Assembly: GCA_900544825.1 (NCBI GenBank)
Contig: UQWP01000001.1
Coordinates: 15,881 to 79,880, forward strand
Direction of reading: 5' to 3'
Length of the DNA stretch: 64,000 bases
Source: an uncultured Prevotella sp.
Lineage (GTDB): Bacteria > Bacteroidota > Bacteroidia > Bacteroidales > Bacteroidaceae
The stretch's first letter is position 1. Every line of letters starts with the position of its first letter. Made by a program: the position numbers and the translations under genes. Positions 34,566-61,717 of the stretch are shown here, in pieces. Under the pieces are notes generated by a model. It searched no databases and was not told the origin of the DNA. It saw nothing but the letters and a program-made list of their open reading frames with translations.

Positions 34566-37430
34566 TTATTTCTTCTTCAGCAAGGGTGCCAGGAATTTGT
34601 AGGTATAGCCTTTCTTGCTCTTTGCCATCTCTTCCGGTGTGCCGGCAAAGAGAAGCTGACCTCCACCTCGTCCACCTTCGGGACCCATATCAATGAGCCA
34701 GTCGGCGAGCTTGATGACATCCAGGTTGTGCTCGATGATAATCACCGTATTGCCTCTATCTACCAGTTTCTGAAGCACATCCATCAGGATACGGATGTCT
34801 TCGAAATGAAGACCGGTGGTAGGTTCATCCAGGATGTAGAGCGTCTTGCCGGTATCACGTTTGGAAAGTTCGGTAGCAAGTTTCACACGCTGACTTTCTC
34901 CGCCCGAAAGGGTAGTGGAACTCTGTCCCAACTTGATGTAACCCAATCCTACACTCTGCAATGCCTTGATCTTGTTGAGAATCTGAGGCACGTTCTCGAA
35001 GAACTCTACTGCCTGGTTGATGGTCATATCCAGTACATCGGCGATGCTCTTTCCCTTGTATCTTACTTCCAGCGTCTCACGGTTGTAGCGCTTGCCGTGG
35101 CATACCTCACAAGGTACATAGACATCAGGCAGGAAGTTCATCTCGATGGTCTTGTATCCATTTCCGCCACACGCTTCGCATCTGCCACCCTTCACGTTGA
35201 AGGAGAATCTGCCAGGTTTGTAACCACGGATCTTGGCTTCTGGAAGACCCACAAACAGCGAGCGGATATCGCTGAACACACCTGTGTAGGTGGCTGGATT
35301 ACTGCGAGGGGTTCTGCCGATTGGACTTTGATCCACATTCACTACCTTATCGATATTCTCAATGCCTTCGATGCTGTCGTATGGCATCGGTTTCTTCAGG
35401 GAACGGTAGAAATGCTGGGAGAGGATAGGCTGCAGGGTTTCATTGATGAGGGTAGATTTACCCGAACCGCTGACTCCCGTTACTACGATGAGCTTGCCGA
35501 GCGGGAACTCTACATCCACTCCCTTCAGGTTGTTGCCCCTGGCTCCACGGATGGTGATGTTCTTGCCGTTTCCCTCGCGGCGATGCTCTGGAATCTCTAT
35601 TGCCATCTTGCCGTTCAGATACTGGGCGGTGATGGTGTCGGTCTTCAGCATCTCCTTCGGAGTACCCTGGAAAACCACTTCGCCTCCCTTTCTGCCTGCC
35701 TTCGGACCAATATCTACAATCCAGTCGGCTGCTCGCATCATATCCTCATCATGTTCTACAACGATGACGGTATTGCCCAGGTCGCGCAATTCCTTAAGAC
35801 TGTTGATGAGTCGCTCGTTGTCTCGCTGGTGCAGACCGATACTTGGCTCATCGAGGATGTAGAGCACATTGACGAGTTGGCTGCCGATCTGGGTTGCAAG
35901 ACGGATGCGCTGGCTTTCACCACCTGAGAGTGACGCCGACTGGCGATTGAGTGAGAGATAGTTCAGACCCACATCGAGGAGGAAGTTGACACGTGAGCGC
36001 AACTCCTTGATGATCTCGTGAGCCACCTTCGCCTTCATGGCAGGGAGGTGAGCTTCCACCTGTTCGAGCCAGTCGCGCAGTTCGTCGATGTCGAGGTTGG
36101 CAACTTCCGAGATATTCTTGTCCCAGATGCGGAAGGCGAGCGATTCCTTCTTGAGTCGCTGTCCATGGCACTCCGGACATTCGATGGTAGAGATAAACTG
36201 GTCTGCCCACTTCTTTCCTGCAGCACTCTCGTCATTCTCTATCACCTTCTGCAGGTAGTCGATGATGCCATCGTATGCACAGAAGTAATCCGAAGAGGTA
36301 TGCACTTTCTCTTTAACGATTTTCACGTTTTCCAGTGATCCATAGAGGATTTCCTGCATGGCATCTCCCGGAATCTCTGCGATAGGAGTCTTGAGTTTCA
36401 GATCATATTTCTCGAGCAAAGATTCAATCTGCCAGAAAATCATCTGGTTCTTGTATTTGCCGAGAGGGGCGATTCCCCCTTCGTAGATGCTCAGGCTGTC
36501 ATCCGGAATCACCTTCTTGATATCTATCTGGTTTACCTTTCCCAGACCCTTGCAGTGGAGGCAGGCACCTTCCGGCGAATTGAATGAGAACATATTTGGT
36601 GCCGGATCCTGGTATGCCATACCGGTAACTGGATCCATCAGGCGTTTCGAGAAGTTCTTGCCCGTCTTTTCACCTTTCTCTATCACCATCACCATGCCGT
36701 CGCCCTGCTTCATGGCGGTAGCTACGCTCTTACGGATGCGTTCCTCATCAGCTTCCTTCACCACGAGCTTGTCGATGACAACCTCGATGTTGTGCATCTT
36801 GTAGCGGTCGAGCTTCATTCCGCTTACCACTTCCTGGATTTCTCCATCCACACGTACATAGAGATAACCTTTGCGACGCATGCTCTCGAAGAGTTCTCGG
36901 TAATGTCCCTTGCGCTGGCGAACCAGAGGTGCCAGCAGGAAGATTGCTTTTCCGGCATATTCATCGAGAATCATGTCGATGACCTGTTCCTCGGTGTATT
37001 TCACCATCTCTTCACCGCTGCGGTAGCTGTAGGCGGTACCGGCACGGGCAAAGAGCAGGCGGAGATAGTCGTAAATCTCGGTAGTGGTACCAACGGTGGA
37101 ACGAGGGTTCTTGTTGGTGGTCTTCTGTTCGATGCTGATGACCGGACTCAGACCGGTAATCTTATCTACATCCGGGCGCTCCATATTGCCCAGGAAGTTG
37201 CGGGCATAGGCAGAGAATGTCTCGATATAGCGGCGCTGACCTTCGGCAAAGATGGTATCGAAAGCCAACGACGACTTGCCCGAACCCGAAAGTCCGGTTA
37301 TCACGGTGAGGGAGTCGCGTGGAATCTCAACGTCAATGTTCTTGAGGTTATGAACTCTGGCGCCCCATACATTTATCTTTTCTTCTTCAGAAAACTTATC
37401 TTCTTCTATTTTTCCTTCTTCTGAAATCAT
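34566..37430 (-). CDS. uvrA: Excinuclease ABC subunit A (paralog 2)
   Basis: 954 aa. [12 protein letters not shown] and [12 protein letters not shown] Walker A motifs, two LSGGE signatures, zinc-finger Cys clusters. About 20-aa acidic N-terminal extension [21 protein letters not shown] before the conserved start. Confidence 0.9.
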
Positions 37431-37490
37431 AATCTTTACTGTTCCTTCTTTCTAAAACTATAAACTTACCTGCAGGCTATCGTCTTCTTC

Positions 37491-52458: not shown

Positions 52459-52706
52459 TTTATACCCTTTCGGGTAATATGATGATATCTATCTTATAGT
52501 ATTATACCCTATCGGGTAAAATGTATAATGTATAATATCGTATTATACCCTTTCGGGGGCAAATATACGAATAAAAAATGAAAATACCCCCGAAAAGGTA
52601 TAATTTATAATATCATTTAACAAAATTATACCTTTTCGGGGGTAAATCCGTAACGAATCCTTTGGGAAATAAAAAAAAGCGTAACGAACACCTTTTTCGG
52701 GTAATC
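52459..52706. repeat. Regularly spaced array of six copies (five direct, one inverted) of the ~22-bp motif ATTATACCyTTTCGGGGGTAAAT upstream of hipB-like gene; ~42-bp period
   Basis: Copies at 52459-52478, 52501-52520, 52542-52564, 52584-52604 (inverted), 52626-52647 and 52688-52706 (partial, inside the yidC terminator loop). AT-rich spacers. Confidence 0.75.
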
Positions 52707-57838: not shown

Positions 57839-59008
57839 TTAGAAGCGGAAGCAGACTTCTGCATCTGCCATGGAGTAATTGTGCTTGGCGAGGGTCTTGT
57901 CATTCACCAATGCATACTCGGTGAGGATGCTGATTCGCTTGCCGATGTGGAAGTTCAAACCTGCCTCATACTGCGTCTTCTGCATGTTGTTCTTGCCGTT
58001 AGGCTGATACATGTCGTAACGTGCCTTGATGTCGATTCGGCTGTTCTTTGGCAGCTGAGCCAATGGGGCGATGACGAGTCCGTAAACACCCTGAGCCTTA
58101 TCGCCGATATTTGCATTCAGATTGCAGTCCTTGGCGTTGGCGTCGTTGAAGTTGGTGATGCTCTTGGCAAAAGCCTTTCCTGTGGAGTGGATATATTCGG
58201 AGCGAACGGTCCAGCCATCCTGCTTGTATTCGAATGAGAAGGCATAGCGGTTTTGGCTGAGCTTGCGAACGCCAGAGCGTTTCTGAATGTCGGCAGTATA
58301 GGAGGCATCATGCTCGTCGGTCCAGGTTCCCTTTCTTGCATAAGAACCGGTCCATCCGAAGGCACCGATGCGCATGCCGCTTACTGGCATTACCCATACA
58401 CCTCCGATGATGTTCTTCTGATTATCAACGTCCTTTGTGTTGGTTCCCTGTCCGTTGAATACGCCCACCTGATAGTGCAGCAGGTTTCTGCCGTTGGCAT
58501 TCTTGAGGAAATCACCCTGCAGCTGCAGACCGATGTCACGACCGTTGGAAGCATGCTCTCCGGCACGGTCACTGAAGCCAGCCAGCTTACTTACGTTCTG
58601 AGAGTATCCCATGAATCCCTGATCGATAGGGTGCATCGGATTCTCGAAGGTGAATGGGTTCTTGAACTGTCCTATCTTCACCTTGAAGTACTCGTACTTC
58701 TGCCACTCAGCAAACAGGTCCACCATTCTCGGGCTTGAACCGAGGTTGGAAGTATTGCCGTTAAACTGAATCTGGGTCTTCCAGTAGAAGTCGTCTGCAA
58801 TGCGACCTTCTAAGGCGATACGGCCCATTCGGATGTTGAACGAGTTGGATTCAGCGTTCTTCTGTCCGCTATACTGATACTGGGTCATGCCATAACCCGA
58901 CAGCTTTACGTTGCTCAACCACGAAGGCAATTCGATGGTCTGCTTCTTTTGGGCGCTGGCTGCGACCGTAGTCAAAGCCATGAGCGTCAGGATGATACCT
59001 TTTTTCAT
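57839..59008 (-). CDS. Porin (phosphate-selective porin O/P-like family) with signal peptide
   Basis: Start at MKKGIILTLMALTTVAASAQ (59008). Barrel pattern. C-terminal ...AEVCFRF. The upstream extension MRQRNKPKNKIEIK is likely not translated. Confidence 0.7.
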   Translation of the reverse strand: MKKGIILTLMALTTVAASAQKKQTIELPSWLSNVKLSGYGMTQYQYSGQKNAESNSFNIRMGRIALEGRIADDFYWKTQIQFNGNTSNLGSSPRMVDLFAEWQKYEYFKVKIGQFKNPFTFENPMHPIDQGFMGYSQNVSKLAGFSDRAGEHASNGRDIGLQLQGDFLKNANGRNLLHYQVGVFNGQGTNTKDVDNQKNIIGGVWVMPVSGMRIGAFGWTGSYARKGTWTDEHDASYTADIQKRSGVRKLSQNRYAFSFEYKQDGWTVRSEYIHSTGKAFAKSITNFNDANAKDCNLNANIGDKAQGVYGLVIAPLAQLPKNSRIDIKARYDMYQPNGKNNMQKTQYEAGLNFHIGKRISILTEYALVNDKTLAKHNYSMADAEVCFRF

Positions 59009-59033
59009 CTTAATTTCTATTTTGTTTTTAGGT

Positions 59034-60635
59034 TTATTTCTTTGCCGCAAGCTCCTCTGCAGTCAAGTCTTCCGCTTTAGCAGCTTCCAATGCGAGCTTT
59101 TCTGCCTCCTTGGCAGCCTTGGCTTCAGCTATCGCCTTTTCACGCTCTCTGCGCTCCTTCTTCTTCTGCTTGATTTCAGCGTCGCTGCGCTTCTCGAGCA
59201 ATACCACGTTCTCTACGTGAGGAGTATGAGGGAACATATCAACTGGCTGAACAGCAGCTGCTTTGTAGTGGTCGTCCATCAGCTGCAGGTCGCGTGCCTG
59301 AGTAGCAGGGTTGCAGCTTACATATACGATGCGCTTTGGCGCTGCGTTCAGAATCACGTTCACTACATCAGGATGCATTCCGGCACGTGGAGGGTCAGTG
59401 ATGATGACATCTGGGCGACCGTGCTGAGCGATAAAGTCATTGGTCAGGATATCCTTCATATCGCCTGCGTAGAAGAGGGTGTTCTCGATGTTGTTCACCT
59501 GGGAATTCACCTTGGCATCCTCGATAGCCTCTGGTACGTATTCGATACCGATGACCTTCTTTGCTTTGTGAGCCACGAAGTTGGCGATGGTTCCGGTACC
59601 GGTGTAGAGGTCGTAAACCAGCTCGTCGCCGGTAAGGTTGGCAAACTCGCGAGCCACGCAGTAGAGGTGGTAAGCCTGCTCGGTATTGGTCTGATAGAAA
59701 CTCTTAGGACCTACCTTGAACTTCAGGTCTTCCATCAGCTCGAAGATGTGGTCGTTGCCCTTGAAGAGGCTGAGCTCCAGGTCGTTGATGGTATCGTTGC
59801 CCTTTTGGTTATCTACATACATGAGTGAGGTAATCTGAGGGAACTTGTCAGCCACCTGCTGCATCAGCTCCAAGGCTCTCTGCTCATCTCCCTCCTCATC
59901 GTAATGGAACTGGAATACGAGCATCCACTCGCCGGTGTTCGAATTGCGGATCATCATGTCGCGGAGCAAACCGTGCTGCTCACGAAGATCGTAGAAGGTA
60001 TAGTTGTGAGAGTCTGCGTATTCGAAAACGAAGTTGCGGATTTCGTTGCAGAGGTCATCCATCAGCCAGCACTTCTTGATTGGATAAATCTTGTCGAAGG
60101 CACCGGTGATATGGAAACCGATGGCATTCTGGGCATGGCGTTCCTTGAGAGAAGTTACGGTATCATCTTTTTTCTGAGGGAGTTGAGCCAATTCTTCTGA
60201 CGTAAACCAGCGCTTGTTGCTGCATCCGAACTCAATCTTGTTGCGGTACTCCTGGGTTTTCACGCTGCCCATGATAGGGCGGAATTCAGGGAGTTCGATC
60301 TTGCCGATGCGGGTGAGCTGGTCTTCCACCTGCTTCTGCTTCGCCTTGATCTGCTCCTCGTAAGGAAGGTTCTGCCATTTGCAACCGCCACAGATGCCGA
60401 AGTGTTCGCACATCGGTTCCTGTCTCACGTCGCTCTTCTTGATGAAGCGAACTACCTTCGCCTCGCAATACTTATGTTTTTTCTTAACTACCTGCAAATC
60501 TACTACATCGCCAGGCACGCAGAAAGGCACGAAGATGACCTGGTCATCTACGCGAGTGATGCACTTACCCTCGGCTGCTACAGCCTCGATGGTGATGTTC
60601 TCCAAGAGAGGTAATGGTTTACGTTTTCTTGCCAT
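59034..60635 (-). CDS. rlmD: 23S rRNA (uracil-C5)-methyltransferase RlmD-like (TRAM + Fe-S + SAM-MTase) with Lys/Ala/Glu-rich C-terminal tail
   Basis: TRAM domain N-terminus. 4-Cys cluster CEHFGICGGCKWQ. MTase motifs (DLYTGTGTI; PPRAGM). ~60-aa KAE-rich tail ...KQKKKERREREKAIAEAKAAKEAEKLALEAAKAEDLTAEELAAKK. Confidence 0.85.
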   Translation of the reverse strand: MARKRKPLPLLENITIEAVAAEGKCITRVDDQVIFVPFCVPGDVVDLQVVKKKHKYCEAKVVRFIKKSDVRQEPMCEHFGICGGCKWQNLPYEEQIKAKQKQVEDQLTRIGKIELPEFRPIMGSVKTQEYRNKIEFGCSNKRWFTSEELAQLPQKKDDTVTSLKERHAQNAIGFHITGAFDKIYPIKKCWLMDDLCNEIRNFVFEYADSHNYTFYDLREQHGLLRDMMIRNSNTGEWMLVFQFHYDEEGDEQRALELMQQVADKFPQITSLMYVDNQKGNDTINDLELSLFKGNDHIFELMEDLKFKVGPKSFYQTNTEQAYHLYCVAREFANLTGDELVYDLYTGTGTIANFVAHKAKKVIGIEYVPEAIEDAKVNSQVNNIENTLFYAGDMKDILTNDFIAQHGRPDVIITDPPRAGMHPDVVNVILNAAPKRIVYVSCNPATQARDLQLMDDHYKAAAVQPVDMFPHTPHVENVVLLEKRSDAEIKQKKKERREREKAIAEAKAAKEAEKLALEAAKAEDLTAEELAAKK

Positions 60636-60737
60636 AATTCAAATTTGTTTTTTTATGGCTGCAAAGTTAATACATTTTTGTGAGAAATGAAAGAGTTGTC
60701 CCGGATTTTTTCAGTCTTTGTCCCGGATGTTGTGAGG

Positions 60738-60908
60738 TAGGAAGGAATGGAAGAAGGGGAAGATAGGAGGGGAATGGGGGAAGGAGAGGAAGGGAAAAGG
60801 TGAAAAAGTGAAAGTGAAAAGGTGAATGAGGTGAATGGTGAACGAGGTGAATTTGATGAAAATGGTGTATGCAGCGAATTGCAAAAAGGTCAAAAGGTCA
60901 AAAGTGAC
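60738..60908. repeat. Purine-rich (plus strand) microsatellite-like block: GA-rich run, then GGTGAAA/GTGAAAG units, GGTGAAT units, AAAAGGTCA x2-GTGAC
   Basis: ggaaggaatggaagaaggggaagataggaggggaatgggggaaggagaggaagggaaaaggtgaaaaagtgaaagtgaaaaggtgaatgaggtgaatggtgaacgaggtgaat...aaaaaggtcaaaaggtcaaaagtgac. Confidence 0.8.
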
Positions 60909-61150
60909 TTTTCGTAAAAAGACGAAGGGTTGATGACTGGCTCTTGAATATCGTTGATGACAGGTTCTTGTATATTCATGTTGAAGATTTCTTCTATATA
61001 TAATTGTAGTACTTACGCGCGTACATTATTATATGGATTTTTAATAATTAATGGTATTTAATAATCTTAATCTTGGCATATTGATAATTATTATATGATA
61101 TTTAGGATTCGTCTCATTTCTGTTCTTTGAAAAATCACATTCGTAAATTC

Positions 61151-61300
61151 GGCAGATTCACCCAATTCACCATTCACCACATTCACCTTTTCACTTTCAC
61201 CTTCACTTTTTCACCTTCACTTTTTCACTTTCACCTTTTCGCTTTTGTCAAATGTGACTTTTGACCTTTTGACCTTTTGACCTTTTGCCCCTTTTGGATC
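61151..61300. repeat. Pyrimidine-rich (plus strand) block that is the reverse-complement counterpart of 60738-60908: ATTCACC x4, TTTCACC/CTTCAC units, GTCAAATGTGAC, TTTTGACC x3
   Basis: attcacccaattcaccattcaccacattcaccttttcactttcaccttcactttttcaccttcactttttcactttcaccttttcgcttttgtcaaatgtgacttttgaccttttgaccttttgaccttttg. Confidence 0.8.
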
Positions 61301-61387
61301 TTCACCCATGCTCTCTCCCGATGTCCCCTTCGAACCCCAGTTCCAGGCGATTCCATCGCCTGTCCCTTTCCTCTCTCGATGCCCATT

Positions 61388-61453
61388 TTCCTACGTCGCG
61401 ACGTAGCAATTCCTGCGTCCCGACGTAATAATTCCTGCGTCGCGACGTAGGAA
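61388..61453. repeat. Three in-phase tandem copies of a 22-bp near-palindrome (ideal TTCCTACGTCGCGACGTAGGAA); candidate operator/iteron-like array ~265 bp upstream of ppdK
   Basis: ttcctacgtcgcgacgtagcaa | ttcctgcgtcccgacgtaataa | ttcctgcgtcgcgacgtaggaa. GC-rich island in an AT-rich intergenic region. Confidence 0.8.
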
Positions 61454-61649
61454 AAAGAAGGCCTTGAAGGGAACTCAGCCCCTCAAACTGTCAGAATCTC
61501 TTTCTTTGCCAACTTATAATTTCCTCTCAATCGTTGCATATTGATAGTAGATTGTTAAAAATAGCCCCGTGTGTGCGACAACAGTGTGAAATGTAATCTC
61601 GAGATAGCAAAAAAGAGTATAAAAGTTTGGTGGTTTCAGAGAAATGTTG

Positions 61650-61657
61650 TATATTTG
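61650..61657 (+). promoter_or_regulatory. -7 box TATATTTG upstream of ppdK
   Basis: gttgtatatttgcatc, ~60 nt upstream of the ATG at 61718. Confidence 0.4.
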
Positions 61658-61717
61658 CATCATCAAAGTAGTTTGATAATAACTAGAATTATATAATATT
61701 TTTGAACCTATAACAAA

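Follow-up and report, generated by a model that had tools for sequence, protein, structure and literature searches.

Iteron-type origins such as lambda ori, P1 oriR, R6K and pSC101 place arrays of short repeats beside an AT-rich segment that can be melted; their repeats are direct, one-sided and 17-22 bp long and, under a common layout, vary from one related element to another. The packaging sites P1 pac and SPP1 pacL/pacC/pacR surround a central cleavage site with clusters of short motifs, arrayed for the terminase small subunit. Invertons of the Bacteroidales (the B. fragilis capsule loci, Mpi) consist of an intergenic segment, found in either orientation, whose flanking inverted repeats measure a few tens of bp; they are served by a dedicated invertase. 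Contingency loci, together with Correia/MITE and REP/BIME elements, are intergenic, polymorphic in length and composed of slippage-prone short units or palindromic modules. Finally, the protelomerase targets telRL (N15) and pal (PY54) share the central decamer TACGCGCGTA (PMC3540006, PMC12624138), set in AT-rich flanks (PMC3540006).

Here we describe a structure between the divergent genes rlmD and ppdK of Segatella (Prevotella) copri that resembles each of these systems in part. The reading we favour, with a probability of roughly 0.4, is that it represents an orphan copy of the cis-acting region of a mobile element, in which polar arrays of putative protein-binding sites flank a meltable site and which is maintained by slippage and arm-to-arm recombination. 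The features of the locus in the window (the whole 64-kb stretch of DNA that was analysed) are as follows.

59034-60635, minus strand: rlmD, left neighbour of the intergenic region
60636-61717: intergenic region, 1082 bp, with divergent genes on both sides
60662-60669, minus strand: -7 box of the rlmD promoter, TAACTTTG, fitting TAnnTTTG; gene-proximal and outside the repeats
60696-60706 and 60718-60728, plus strand: two direct repeats TTGTCCCGGAT at 22-nt spacing, directly upstream of the rlmD -33 region
60738-60795, plus strand: outer left block, G/A-rich and free of C, with GGAAGG-like units and a 17-nt mirror repeat
60795-60870, plus strand: left GTGAA array, GTGAAA then GGTGAAT; seven GTGAA pentamers at 6-9-nt spacing
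60884-60919, plus strand: two copies of AAAAGGTC and a small palindrome GTCAAAAGTGAC; inverted partner at 61243-61278, nesting order broken
60909-61147: AT-rich centre, GC content 21-34%; a stretch of 24 bp is tandemly duplicated (60929-60975)
60996-61034: central site, an imperfect inverted pair ATATATAATTGTA (60996-61008) and TACATTATTATAT (61022-61034) around GTACTTACGCGCG
61148-61243, plus strand: right TTCAC array, ATTCACC then TTTCAC/CTTCAC; eleven TTCAC, reverse complement of the left array
61243-61296, plus strand: palindrome GTCAAATGTGAC, then (CTTTTGAC) x4.8
61297-61380, plus strand: outer right block, rich in C/T and poor in G, loosely complementary to 60738-60795
61388-61453: three palindromic units TTCCTRCGTCSCGACGTAG in 22-bp phase, a candidate operator array
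61463-61487, minus strand: terminator-like hairpin followed by a T run
61626-61657, plus strand: ppdK promoter, -33 TTTG and -7 TATATTTG (61650-61657)
61718, plus strand: ATG of ppdK, right neighbour of the intergenic region

A preliminary description of this DNA had reported a degenerate long inverted repeat of microsatellite-like units, mirrored around an AT-rich core. Inverted-pair and composition analysis confirmed that the structure is real: a C-depleted left arm (60738-60908) and a G-depleted right arm (61148-61380) enclose a centre of ∼240 bp. The symmetry of the arms is that of a reverse complement, so "mirrored" was the wrong term, and the left arm is G/A/T-rich and C-poor rather than almost pure G/A, its longest homopurine run being 25 nt. 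GC skew peaks at +0.96 (60750-60849) and at -0.76 (61150-61249), the DNA separating these peaks having a GC content of 21-27%. Blocks of 80 bp containing 20 or more G and no more than 2 C, or vice versa, were found in the window only in the arms and in one coding stretch (37391-37471). Polarity is complete, with seven GTGAA and no TTCAC in 60800-60851 and eleven TTCAC and no GTGAA in 61157-61234; the window average for the two pentamers together is 2.7 per kb. All four matches to the GGTGAAWNGGTGAA pattern in the window (0.17 expected) fall inside the structure. The left array is complementary to 61148-61243, the best gapless inverted pair being 60805-60860 with 61148-61203 (56 nt, 86%) and the second best 60884-60919 with 61243-61278 (36 nt, 86%). 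The shuffled order of modules noted before is evident in the AAAAGGTC/GTCAAAAGTGAC block, which is inner in the left arm and outer in the right and whose copy number differs among strains. We consider a putative array of protein-binding sites to be the most economical reading of the polar GTGAA/TTCAC repeats.

As had been stated, no annotated gene accounts for the structure; nor does any Rfam family or tRNA. The 60-aa open reading frame at 60711-60893 is of low complexity, as described, and is encoded on the minus strand, which corrects the earlier reading. Coding potential was rejected for the intergenic region as a whole, since it holds only low-complexity frames that are not conserved because indels throw them out of frame. 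A known structured non-coding RNA or tRNA was rejected as well (no known family, no internal promoter, arm sequence not conserved): the Rfam search returned only a sub-threshold mir-592 match on the 61388-61453 palindromes (23.6 bits against a cut-off of 67) and no tRNA.

Treated as single-stranded DNA, 60730-61390 has a predicted folding energy of -105.8 kcal/mol, compared with -66.3 ± 6 for shuffled sequences (z = -6.6), and a cruciform formed by the arms would be thermodynamically possible. One could envisage that the structure acts as a topological buffer, with the Z-DNA-prone TACGCGCGTACAT, the arm cruciform and a small H-DNA tract absorbing negative supercoiling between the divergent genes. 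The location between divergent promoters, a 13-nt alternating purine-pyrimidine run at the centre (seen on inspection), the strong predicted intrastrand pairing and a 17-nt purine mirror repeat are in keeping with this idea. We nevertheless judge it very unlikely, as the purine tracts are short, sister strains dispense with the structure, and a buffer leaves unexplained both a second locus and the exact 19-mer shared with phages (see below). The potential for H-DNA raised previously seems small, with a T interrupting the arms every few bases and GGGAAGGAGAGGAAGGG (17 nt, 60778-60794) being the sole purine mirror repeat found.

The consensus for the -7 element of Bacteroidetes promoters is TAnnTTTG. 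Within the intergenic region such boxes lie at 60669 (minus strand), 61650 and 61697, all of them gene-proximal; rlmD and ppdK each have their own promoter, and the scan detected none in the segment between the arms. Matches to sigma-70-type promoters also occur in the region and are inapplicable to Bacteroidetes. The sequence GCAAAGTTA is kept in all intergenic regions of the S. copri complex, across which a block at ∼61550-61625 preceding the ppdK promoter is also conserved. Between the promoters and the arms lie the TTGTCCCGGAT pair, candidate regulator or iteron-like sites of which armless alleles retain a single copy, and the 22-bp-phased palindromes. The latter pattern has 3 matches against 0.04 expected and is present in all armed alleles. 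The two features have a GTCCCGA/GTCGCGAC core in common. That the GTCCCGGAT direct repeat and the palindromes are part of one module set with the cassette had been missed in the preliminary description. The GTCCCGGAT repeat itself had been correctly recognised, as had its start at 60720; the other copy starts at 60698 rather than 60697.

The centre varies from strain to strain with the exception of its core motif, and neither a TAnnTTTG promoter nor a DnaA box was found within 60909-61147. The central site includes the palindrome TACGCGCGTA, at 61014-61023 rather than the 61012-61021 given earlier, and the conserved 19-mer CGCGCGTACATTATTATAT (61016-61034). This 19-mer occurs once in the window and is found in every S. 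copri-complex allele, armed and armless alike; across alleles the central CGCGCGTACMTTATTATAT at 61016-61034 is the sole constant piece. The conserved part of the structure, overlooked in the preliminary description, is an asymmetric central motif of 19-22 bp, shared with phages of Bacteroidales, rather than the arms. A 19-mer-like sequence within rlmD of other Prevotella species was judged to be a coding-sequence coincidence. Simpler relatives of the central AT-rich palindrome (ACCTTATTATATATAAGG) occupy the same intergenic region in armless outgroup species, so the centre may be an old host regulatory site and not an import.

The comparison base comprised about 250 related loci. Same-clade S. 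copri strains with near-identical flanks lack both arms: the blocks are wholly absent, in the same flanks, from L002 (compared with the window) and L004 (compared with L085), and in L002-L005 and L016 the core of 19-22 nt alone persists where the arms are missing. It follows that the arms are dispensable for rlmD and ppdK. In other strains the layout is kept, with changed repeat units and copy numbers. Both vary even among strains that are at least 99% identical over the RlmD N-terminus (first 150 aa), in which the intergenic region ranges from 808 to 1257 bp. Complementarity between left and right arms scores 26-88 within an allele family, 10-26 between families and 9-17 in shuffles. Strain L019 combines largely window-like flanks with a cassette of the L006 type, so that cassette type is uncoupled from the flanks. 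Moreover, arms of the L009 type are built on GGTAACAT instead of GTGAA, and one conserved binding specificity therefore cannot cover all alleles.

Many of these observations would be expected of a neutral, self-perpetuating repeat, in which a small AT-rich palindrome became the centre of an ancestral inverted duplication that was expanded by slippage and homogenised by arm recombination or template switching, the central motif alone being functional as an ordinary host regulatory site. Such a repeat is consistent with the armless close relatives, with the extreme turnover of units and copy number, and with the block pattern of arm complementarity, an outcome of concerted evolution that needs no selection. 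The intergenic region also gathers a MITE, an IS and other insertions across strains, and other intergenic regions of the window likewise hold short tandem repeats. The preliminary description had named a complete absence of the blocks from close relatives as a sign of slippage junk, and its refuting condition is thus borne out in part. The same architecture is nevertheless built from other units in three or more allele families, and again at a second locus, so plain slippage junk it is not. The inverted layout is kept in three allele families whose units are unrelated, the composite module set is stable and functional-looking at the second locus, between divergent promoters of a replication-gene island, and the core is shared exactly with phages. 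On this evidence we hold a neutral origin to be possible but somewhat unlikely; were it correct, the locus would still be a clear example, in nature, of long inverted arrays of microsatellite units evolving in concert on a bacterial chromosome.

The structure also differs from known dispersed repeats. It was found in one copy in 64 kb and at two chromosomal loci overall, compared with the tens to hundreds of Correia, MITE or REP elements, and the repeats lie upstream of both promoters, outside the promoter spacers and reading frames used by contingency loci. Comparison of armed and armless alleles revealed no duplication at the cassette borders, and blastn against phage and plasmid collections gave no homology to the whole structure. 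A MITE- or REP-like identity was rejected on these grounds.

Inverted repeats flanking an asymmetric centre are also expected of an inverton, where recombination between the arms would flip the centre and alter what it directs toward rlmD or ppdK. Indeed, the centre is inverted in L009 (another species-level clade), nt 115-346 of contig L101 correspond to the L102 intergenic region from 445 to 214 reversed at 99.6% identity, with the junction within an arm repeat, and the orientation of the central AT-rich motif differs among armless outgroups (L061, L089 and L090 against L005 and L105). However, about 25 armed loci hold the centre in a single orientation, and L101 leaves the locus into unrelated DNA beyond its inverted part, so it may be chimeric or reflect a larger rearrangement. 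Unlike the known Bacteroidales invertons, the cassette has arms 5-10 times longer and made of microsatellite units, it lacks a detected internal promoter, and no recombinase gene adjoins the locus in L001. A switch of this kind therefore seems to us distinctly unlikely.

The favoured reading, an orphan cis-acting region, draws on a second S. copri locus (L338-L340), where every module is found again with hardly any variation: the TTGTCCCGRAT direct repeats, the palindromes in 22-bp phase, arms of GTGAAT units and the core. In order, the region presents a leftward promoter, two copies of TTGTCCCGAAT, the palindromes, (GTGAAT)x3, an AT-rich centre with ATATAATAAGGTACGCGCGCG, (ATTCAC)x3 and a rightward promoter, an arrangement comparable to the rlmD-ppdK cassette. 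The TTGTCCCGGAT-type pair is equally placed before the leftward promoter, and the arm module is 100% identical to L006-type intergenic regions over 31-33 nt. The region is nearly invariant in six contigs and is bordered by a leftward operon that includes the gene of an HU-HIG protein (PF18291, 2.5e-14) and by an operon containing a DnaG-type primase (PF01807, 5e-13; phrog_47, 1e-33). HU-HIG is not mentioned in PMC7159879. In L350, a homologue at 57% protein identity, a TTCAC array still precedes the same promoter. Linkage to the integrase beside this locus in L196 was rejected: the gene belongs to a transposon-like element whose end meets the host repeats in L196 only, and 13 other copies of the element have unrelated flanks.

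Outside the chromosome, the exact 19-mer CGCGCGTACMTTATTATAT was found in 35 viral contigs (IMG/VR), where a rough, uncomputed estimate of chance gives one or two matches, and in Bacteroides phage crAss002; Prevotella Lak megaphages carry 18 of its nucleotides. A search of 0.5 Mb of control viral loci with a shortened 16-nt form of the motif, allowing up to two mismatches, gave no matches. The viral copies occupy at least 12 unrelated contexts, almost all intergenic, mostly with one copy per locus and in either orientation. In one viral contig (L193) the motif is a perfect 32-bp palindrome. In crAss002 it sits in a noncoding gap within the flat minimum of cumulative GC skew, between two divergent gene modules; because this minimum coincides with a switch in gene orientation, the evidence is weak. 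In another contig (L344), GTCCCGGAT-type tandem arrays adjoin two DnaA boxes and may act like iterons. A promoter function for the core motif was rejected because its orientation relative to downstream genes is inconsistent (∼5 contexts one way, ∼4 the other, 2 palindromic), an inconsistency that also counts against our preferred reading.

A core that matches exactly between the chromosome and numerous viral contigs, whose flanks are unrelated, is the classical signature of an attachment site. In this scenario the 19-22-bp core would be the attB crossover for integrases whose phages or integrative elements contain an identical core as attP, and the arms would be debris or arm-type sites from past events. 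Integrase genes do lie 0.2-3 kb from the motif in L186 and L175, and the intergenic region is an insertion hotspot (L082, L084, L015, L091-93, and 8 kb in L161). Set against this, none of ∼160 rlmD loci contains a prophage between two cores, the integrase in L196 belongs to the transposon-like element with unrelated insertion sites, and a single integration cannot put arms on both sides of one core. The motif also occurs within phage structural-gene modules, and in crAss002 and Lak phages, for which we know of no integration. We thus give little credence to an attachment site.

A chromosomal origin, terminus or dif site, or a protelomerase target, can in our view be practically discounted. The locus lies at 50.7% and 55.2% of the complete genomes L003 and L011, and the polarity of the arms resembles a skew switch. 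GC skew, which the preliminary description had named as the check for an origin or terminus, was followed over 60 kb leftward and 10 kb rightward, overall and by gene strand, and shows no switch at the site: its replication-linked component is positive on both sides (∼+0.04 left, ∼+0.07 right over 10 kb). Split by strand, it is +0.084 for plus-strand and -0.001 for minus-strand genes on the left, and +0.08 to +0.11 and +0.04 to +0.12, respectively, on the right (10 kb, five strains). Together with the absence of arms from sister strains, the absence of any TTATCCACA DnaA box in the intergenic region at up to one mismatch, and the failure of the core to align by eye with Bacteroidetes dif predictions of the TATAATTTATATTATGTTAAAT type (supplement of PMC3025954), this rules out, within the reach of these data, an origin, terminus or dif site. 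KOPS-like arrays orienting FtsK toward dif fell with the terminus idea. Regarding protelomerases, the literature confirms the identity of the central decamer with that of telRL and pal, but in the window the dyad extends over no more than 10 bp, and L002, L005, L016 and L019 disrupt it; the alleles conserve the site asymmetrically, and in complete genomes the chromosome assembles as a circle. A LexA/SOS box was likewise rejected: Bacteroidales are without the LexA-like regulators, and the known motifs are GGA-N5-TCC and CTAA-N5-TTAG (PMC8565304).

Taken together, these comparisons suggest that the cassette, dispensable and fast-evolving, was probably derived from a mobile element. We propose that it is modular cis-acting DNA common to the S. 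copri chromosome and a mobile primase-encoding island, and not an element required by rlmD or ppdK. Its modules would be the promoter-proximal TTGTCCCGRAT direct repeats, the 22-bp-phased palindromes with the same GTCCCGA core, two GTGAA(W) arrays of opposite polarity, and an easily melted AT-rich centre with CGCGCGTACMTTATTATAT. The polar arrays could load an oligomerising DNA-binding protein on each side of the centre, plausibly one encoded by the island (HU-HIG or the 335/340-aa proteins), and the central motif would be the site acted upon, by melting, nicking or strand exchange. The factor acting there may be common to the Bacteroidales, given that the same 19-mer is present, in a single intergenic copy, in unrelated phages of Bacteroides and Prevotella. 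The rlmD-ppdK copy, which has no replication gene as a neighbour, would be an orphan. It could therefore evolve freely, by slippage during replication, by exchange or conversion from one arm to the other, by an inversion of the centre now and then, and by replacement of the whole cassette via the conserved flanks. Such processes would account for its appearance as a mirrored microsatellite.

The logic of such a cassette would be that of iteron-type origins, partition sites and pac sites. As in iteron origins, short-repeat arrays adjoin a meltable segment, the second-locus copy lies in a control region by primase and helicase-like genes, and the repeats differ between related elements in a constant layout; the L344 arrays beside DnaA boxes add to the likeness. 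The cassette differs in that its units are 6-9 bp long, irregularly spaced by 6-9 nt and out of helical phase, and form two arrays of opposite polarity, while the copy in the window, next to rlmD and ppdK, has neither DnaA box nor initiator gene. Primase-type genes are adjacent at the second locus (L338) only. As in pac sites, short-motif clusters stand on both sides of a central site, here a motif common to phages, which in L191 closely precedes the large terminase gene. Other phage contexts, by contrast, are away from terminase genes, and no counterpart is known of a chromosomal copy whose arms span 170 bp.

S. copri is among the most abundant and strain-diverse of human gut bacteria, and its cis-acting DNA is almost uncharted. 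If the preferred reading is true, the locus identifies a family of regions with a control or origin-like role in mobile elements, and the 19-bp motif common to crAss-like and Lak phages offers a handle for finding the host factor on which they depend. The cassette would also serve as a very polymorphic strain marker beside a highly conserved gene pair. A bolder extension, which we regard as doubtful, is that CGCGCGTACMTTATTATAT is an undescribed Bacteroidales-wide cis-acting site read by a conserved host factor for replication initiation, recombination or packaging. It would be used by unrelated phages (crAss002, Lak megaphages, siphovirus-like contigs), the primase island and the S. copri chromosome, with the GTGAA arrays as an element-specific loading platform. 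The rlmD-ppdK copy would then be an orphan usable in trans, either for in-situ replication or mobilisation of the neighbouring chromosome or as a phage decoy.

At the right edge of the region, the stem of the terminator-like hairpin (61463-61487) displays a two-sided change between alleles, T..A in the window and C..G in L082, as judged by eye.

The window was assigned to the Segatella (Prevotella) copri complex, as its RlmD is 97-98% identical to that of S. copri chromosomes, and the human-gut contig L001 (116 kb) carries an identical locus. The whole repeat structure is held within the 1082-bp spacer between rlmD and ppdK, which is organized as follows:

59034-60635, minus strand: rlmD
60669-60662, minus strand: TAACTTTG, Bacteroidetes-type rlmD promoter near the start codon
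60738-60908: left arm
61016-61034: central 19-mer (core), within the AT-rich centre
61148-61380: right arm
~61626-61657: TTTG...TATATTTG, Bacteroidetes-type ppdK promoter near the start codon
61718, plus strand: start of ppdK

Because each gene has a start-proximal promoter, the repeats lie between both promoters and upstream of each. The modular anatomy reported in the preliminary description, two arms around an AT-rich centre, was borne out and departs strongly from random expectation. The left arm has a GC skew of +0.96 and the right arm one of -0.76, with a centre of 21-27% GC between them; GTGAA occurs seven times in the left arm and TTCAC never, while the right arm has eleven TTCAC and no GTGAA. 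The arms share gapless inverted matches of 56 nt (86%) and 36 nt (86%), and the predicted single-strand fold beats shuffled sequences by 6.6 sd. Intergenic blocks of such strand asymmetry occur nowhere else within the 64-kb window and, as had been stated, annotation does not explain this one: Rfam, ARAGORN and ORF listings over the intergenic region contained nothing accounting for the structure. The arms had also been described as mirrored with a shuffled order; they do form an inverted repeat in which the module pair AAAAGGTC and GTCAAAAGTGAC breaks the nesting order, but the symmetry is that of a reverse complement. The suggestion of H-DNA is weak because homopurine runs reach at most 25 nt and there is a single purine mirror repeat, of 17 nt; that the region acts as a non-B DNA supercoil buffer is very improbable.

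Three palindromic units of the CCTACGTCGCGACGTAGG type, in a 22-bp phase at 61388-61453, resemble an array of operators. Their GTCCCGA/GTCGCGAC core is also that of the TTGTCCCGGAT direct repeats (60696-60728), and the units are found again at the second locus described below. Beside them, on the minus strand, is a terminator-like hairpin followed by a T run (61463-61487). Its stem is changed on both sides between the window (T..A) and the close strain L082 (C..G), which suggests that the structure is genuine. The hairpin could serve to terminate a short transcript running leftward from upstream of ppdK, or to insulate the cassette.

To compare alleles, 160 rlmD loci were gathered from species-representative genomes and metagenomes, and the rlmD-ppdK spacer was taken from each. 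In loci from outside the S. copri complex, this spacer mostly measures 120-400 bp and is repeat-free. Within the complex, armless alleles of ~400 bp (L002-L005, L016, L061, L087-89, L107) coexist with armed alleles of 760 to 1257 bp, also within the same clades. Orthologue comparison, proposed earlier as a measure of conservation, cut both ways: arms are missing in sister strains with near-identical flanks, but armed alleles recur in at least three families distinguished by repeat unit (GGAAGG, GTGAAA, GGTGAAT and AAAAGGTC in the window type; AAAGGTAAAAA, ACAAAAGTAAC and GTGAAT in the L006/L019 type; GGTAACAT in the L009 type). In the armless/armed pairs L002 versus window and L004 versus L085, the flanks are 94.6-100% identical, and inside the spacer only 19-22 nt are in common (TTACGCGCGTACATTATTATAT). 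Locus L019 carries an L006-type cassette in largely window-like flanks, uncoupling cassette type from flanks. The region behaves as an exchangeable cassette. The reading of the locus as an att site or recombination hotspot is unlikely.

Unit copy number and content vary among strains whose RlmD N-termini (first 150 aa) are at least 99% identical. When left arms were scored against reverse-complemented right arms, values were 26-88 within families, 10-26 between families and 9-17 for shuffles; the two arms therefore evolve together, which could reflect inter-arm recombination or conversion, or selection for symmetry. The centre of L009 is in the opposite orientation, and that of contig L101 is reversed compared with L102 (99.6% identity), the junction falling within an arm repeat. 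Such flips would be expected of an inverton, but beyond its inverted centre L101 passes into unrelated DNA, so misassembly or a larger rearrangement is possible, and we consider an inverton improbable.

Insertions are also seen in the spacer. The right arm of L082 contains a MITE-like insertion of ~250 bp with four GGATTTGCAATCC-type hairpins (intergenic nt ~645-890), and in L084 an IS4-like transposase gene is inserted into the same MITE (upstream nt ~700-2160). Other species of the complex have a coding-like fragment (L090) or insertions of ~2 kb (L091-93, L015) and 8 kb (L161). This spacer is, in general, a hotspot for insertions.

An origin or terminus, which the preliminary description had wished to rule out by GC skew, was tested seriously because of the mid-genome position of the locus (50.7% and 55.2% in two complete genomes) and an arm polarity resembling a skew switch. 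Skew is positive over 60 kb to the left and 10 kb to the right; its replication-linked component, with genes split by strand, is ~+0.04 and ~+0.07, respectively. The intergenic region has no DnaA boxes, and the dif sites that Kono et al. (PMC3025954) predicted for Bacteroidetes bear no resemblance to the central motif. Together with the absence of arms in sister strains, these results led us to reject origin, terminus and dif. The TACGCGCGTA decamer of the core also forms the middle of the protelomerase targets of N15 and PY54 (PMC3540006, PMC12624138); a protelomerase site was rejected because the palindrome spans only 10 bp in the window and several alleles disrupt it. Readings of the locus as an origin, terminus or telomere-type site are scarcely tenable.

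The core, CGCGCGTACMTTATTATAT, is the sole part kept in all S. copri-complex alleles; armless outgroups have a simpler AT-rich palindrome (ACCTTATTATATATAAGG) in either orientation. Neutral repeat DNA surrounding an ordinary host regulatory site is a possible, if doubtful, explanation of the locus. Exact copies of the 19-mer are present in 35 IMG/VR contigs, and neither rlmD nor ppdK is on any of them. The Bacteroides phage crAss002 lineage accounts for about half of these contigs, and the remainder represent at least 12 unrelated contexts, where the motif variously follows a major tail gene, precedes a large terminase gene, adjoins a tRNA or lies close to integrases. The viral motif is nearly always intergenic. 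Loci usually have a single copy, which can face either way with respect to the genes; some copies lie in a perfect 32-bp palindrome (L193), while others are paired as inverted copies separated by a spacer. Nine Prevotella Lak megaphage genomes each contain a single match to 18 of the 19 bases. The crAss002 motif (90708) occupies a noncoding gap at a flat minimum of cumulative GC skew between two divergent gene modules, a placement that fits an origin region, though it is confounded by gene orientation. It is this phage-shared 19-mer, rather than the purine/pyrimidine arms first noticed, that most deserves follow-up.

In crAss002-like phages (L171 7880-8010; NC_055828.1 ~90.6-90.8 kb) the motif adjoins a (TA)~25 tract, with a 25-nt perfectly alternating purine-pyrimidine run (ATACGTGCGTGTACGCGTGCGTATA) and a second, inverted copy beside it. 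Several contigs of the lineage terminate within ~1 kb of the motif, probably because the TA tract breaks assemblies. In several other Prevotella species (L027, L048-L052), the rlmD coding sequence contains, ~200 nt in, AATATAGTAAGGTACGCGCG, identical to the reverse complement of the core at 16-18 of 19 positions; we judged this a coincidence, yet an odd one.

One viral contig, L196, combines the core with L006-type arm modules. Its integrase belongs to a transposon-like element, which in this contig stops exactly at the host repeats; in other places the element is flanked by unrelated DNA. The host portion of L196 represents a second S. copri locus (L338-L340), with these parts in order:

Leftward promoter
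Two TTGTCCCGAAT repeats, 22 nt apart, placed relative to the -33 region as at rlmD
Four palindromic units of the GCGTCCCGACGCAG type
(GTGAAT)x3
AT-rich centre of ~170 bp with ATATAATAAGGTACGCGCGCG
(ATTCAC)x3
Rightward promoter

The operon running leftward carries the gene for an HU-HIG DNA-binding protein; the rightward one specifies a DnaG-type primase together with proteins of 335, 340 and 514 aa. This structure is almost invariant across six contigs, and a TTCAC array is retained before the same promoter in a homologue of 57% protein identity. Elsewhere, GTCCCGGAT-type arrays form tandem iterons beside two DnaA boxes in one unrelated viral contig, and palindromes of this type flank an AT-rich block in another.

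Taken together, we suggest, at a probability of roughly 0.4, that the best fit is a mobile-element-type cis-acting cassette, the rlmD-ppdK copy being a host-dispensable orphan of the primase-island region. Short units, putatively protein-binding, would flank a meltable centre on both sides in polar arrays, and the key site of the centre would be recognized by something that Bacteroidales share with their phages. The stable copy, taken as canonical, would be a control or origin-like region of the primase island, while the orphan would evolve via slippage, inter-arm exchange, inversion and cassette replacement. Protein binding and replication are inferences here, as is any influence on rlmD or ppdK. 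The cassette is similar in kind to iteron origins, pac sites and invertons, but does not match the full definition of any of them; no account of the locus, its 19-mer or its GTGAA arrays turned up in the searchable literature.

The island at L338 3000-10500 encodes HU-HIG, two unknown ~335-aa proteins, the 514-aa protein (a weak primase/helicase match), the DnaG-type primase and DUF5675, and is probably a so far uncharacterised S. copri element of integrative or replicative type. A transposon-like element (L261 ~1497 onward; L258-L279) has a 407-aa tyrosine integrase ~285 nt from its end; its insertion sites are numerous, T-rich and unrelated to one another, and lie in gut metagenome contigs classed as viral by IMG/VR. 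Within the window, the RlmD ORF is 533 aa, and L006-type relatives align over residues 1-483 only; the C-terminal stretch of ~50 residues, which overlaps the following ORF (57839-59050), may represent an extension, or else the annotated start or stop may be at fault. A 41-bp tandem repeat (52460-52557; 2.4 copies, TRF score 131) contains the small palindrome ACCCTTTCGGGT, and tandem repeats of 7-25 bp occur in several further intergenic regions (18114, 27916, 42556).
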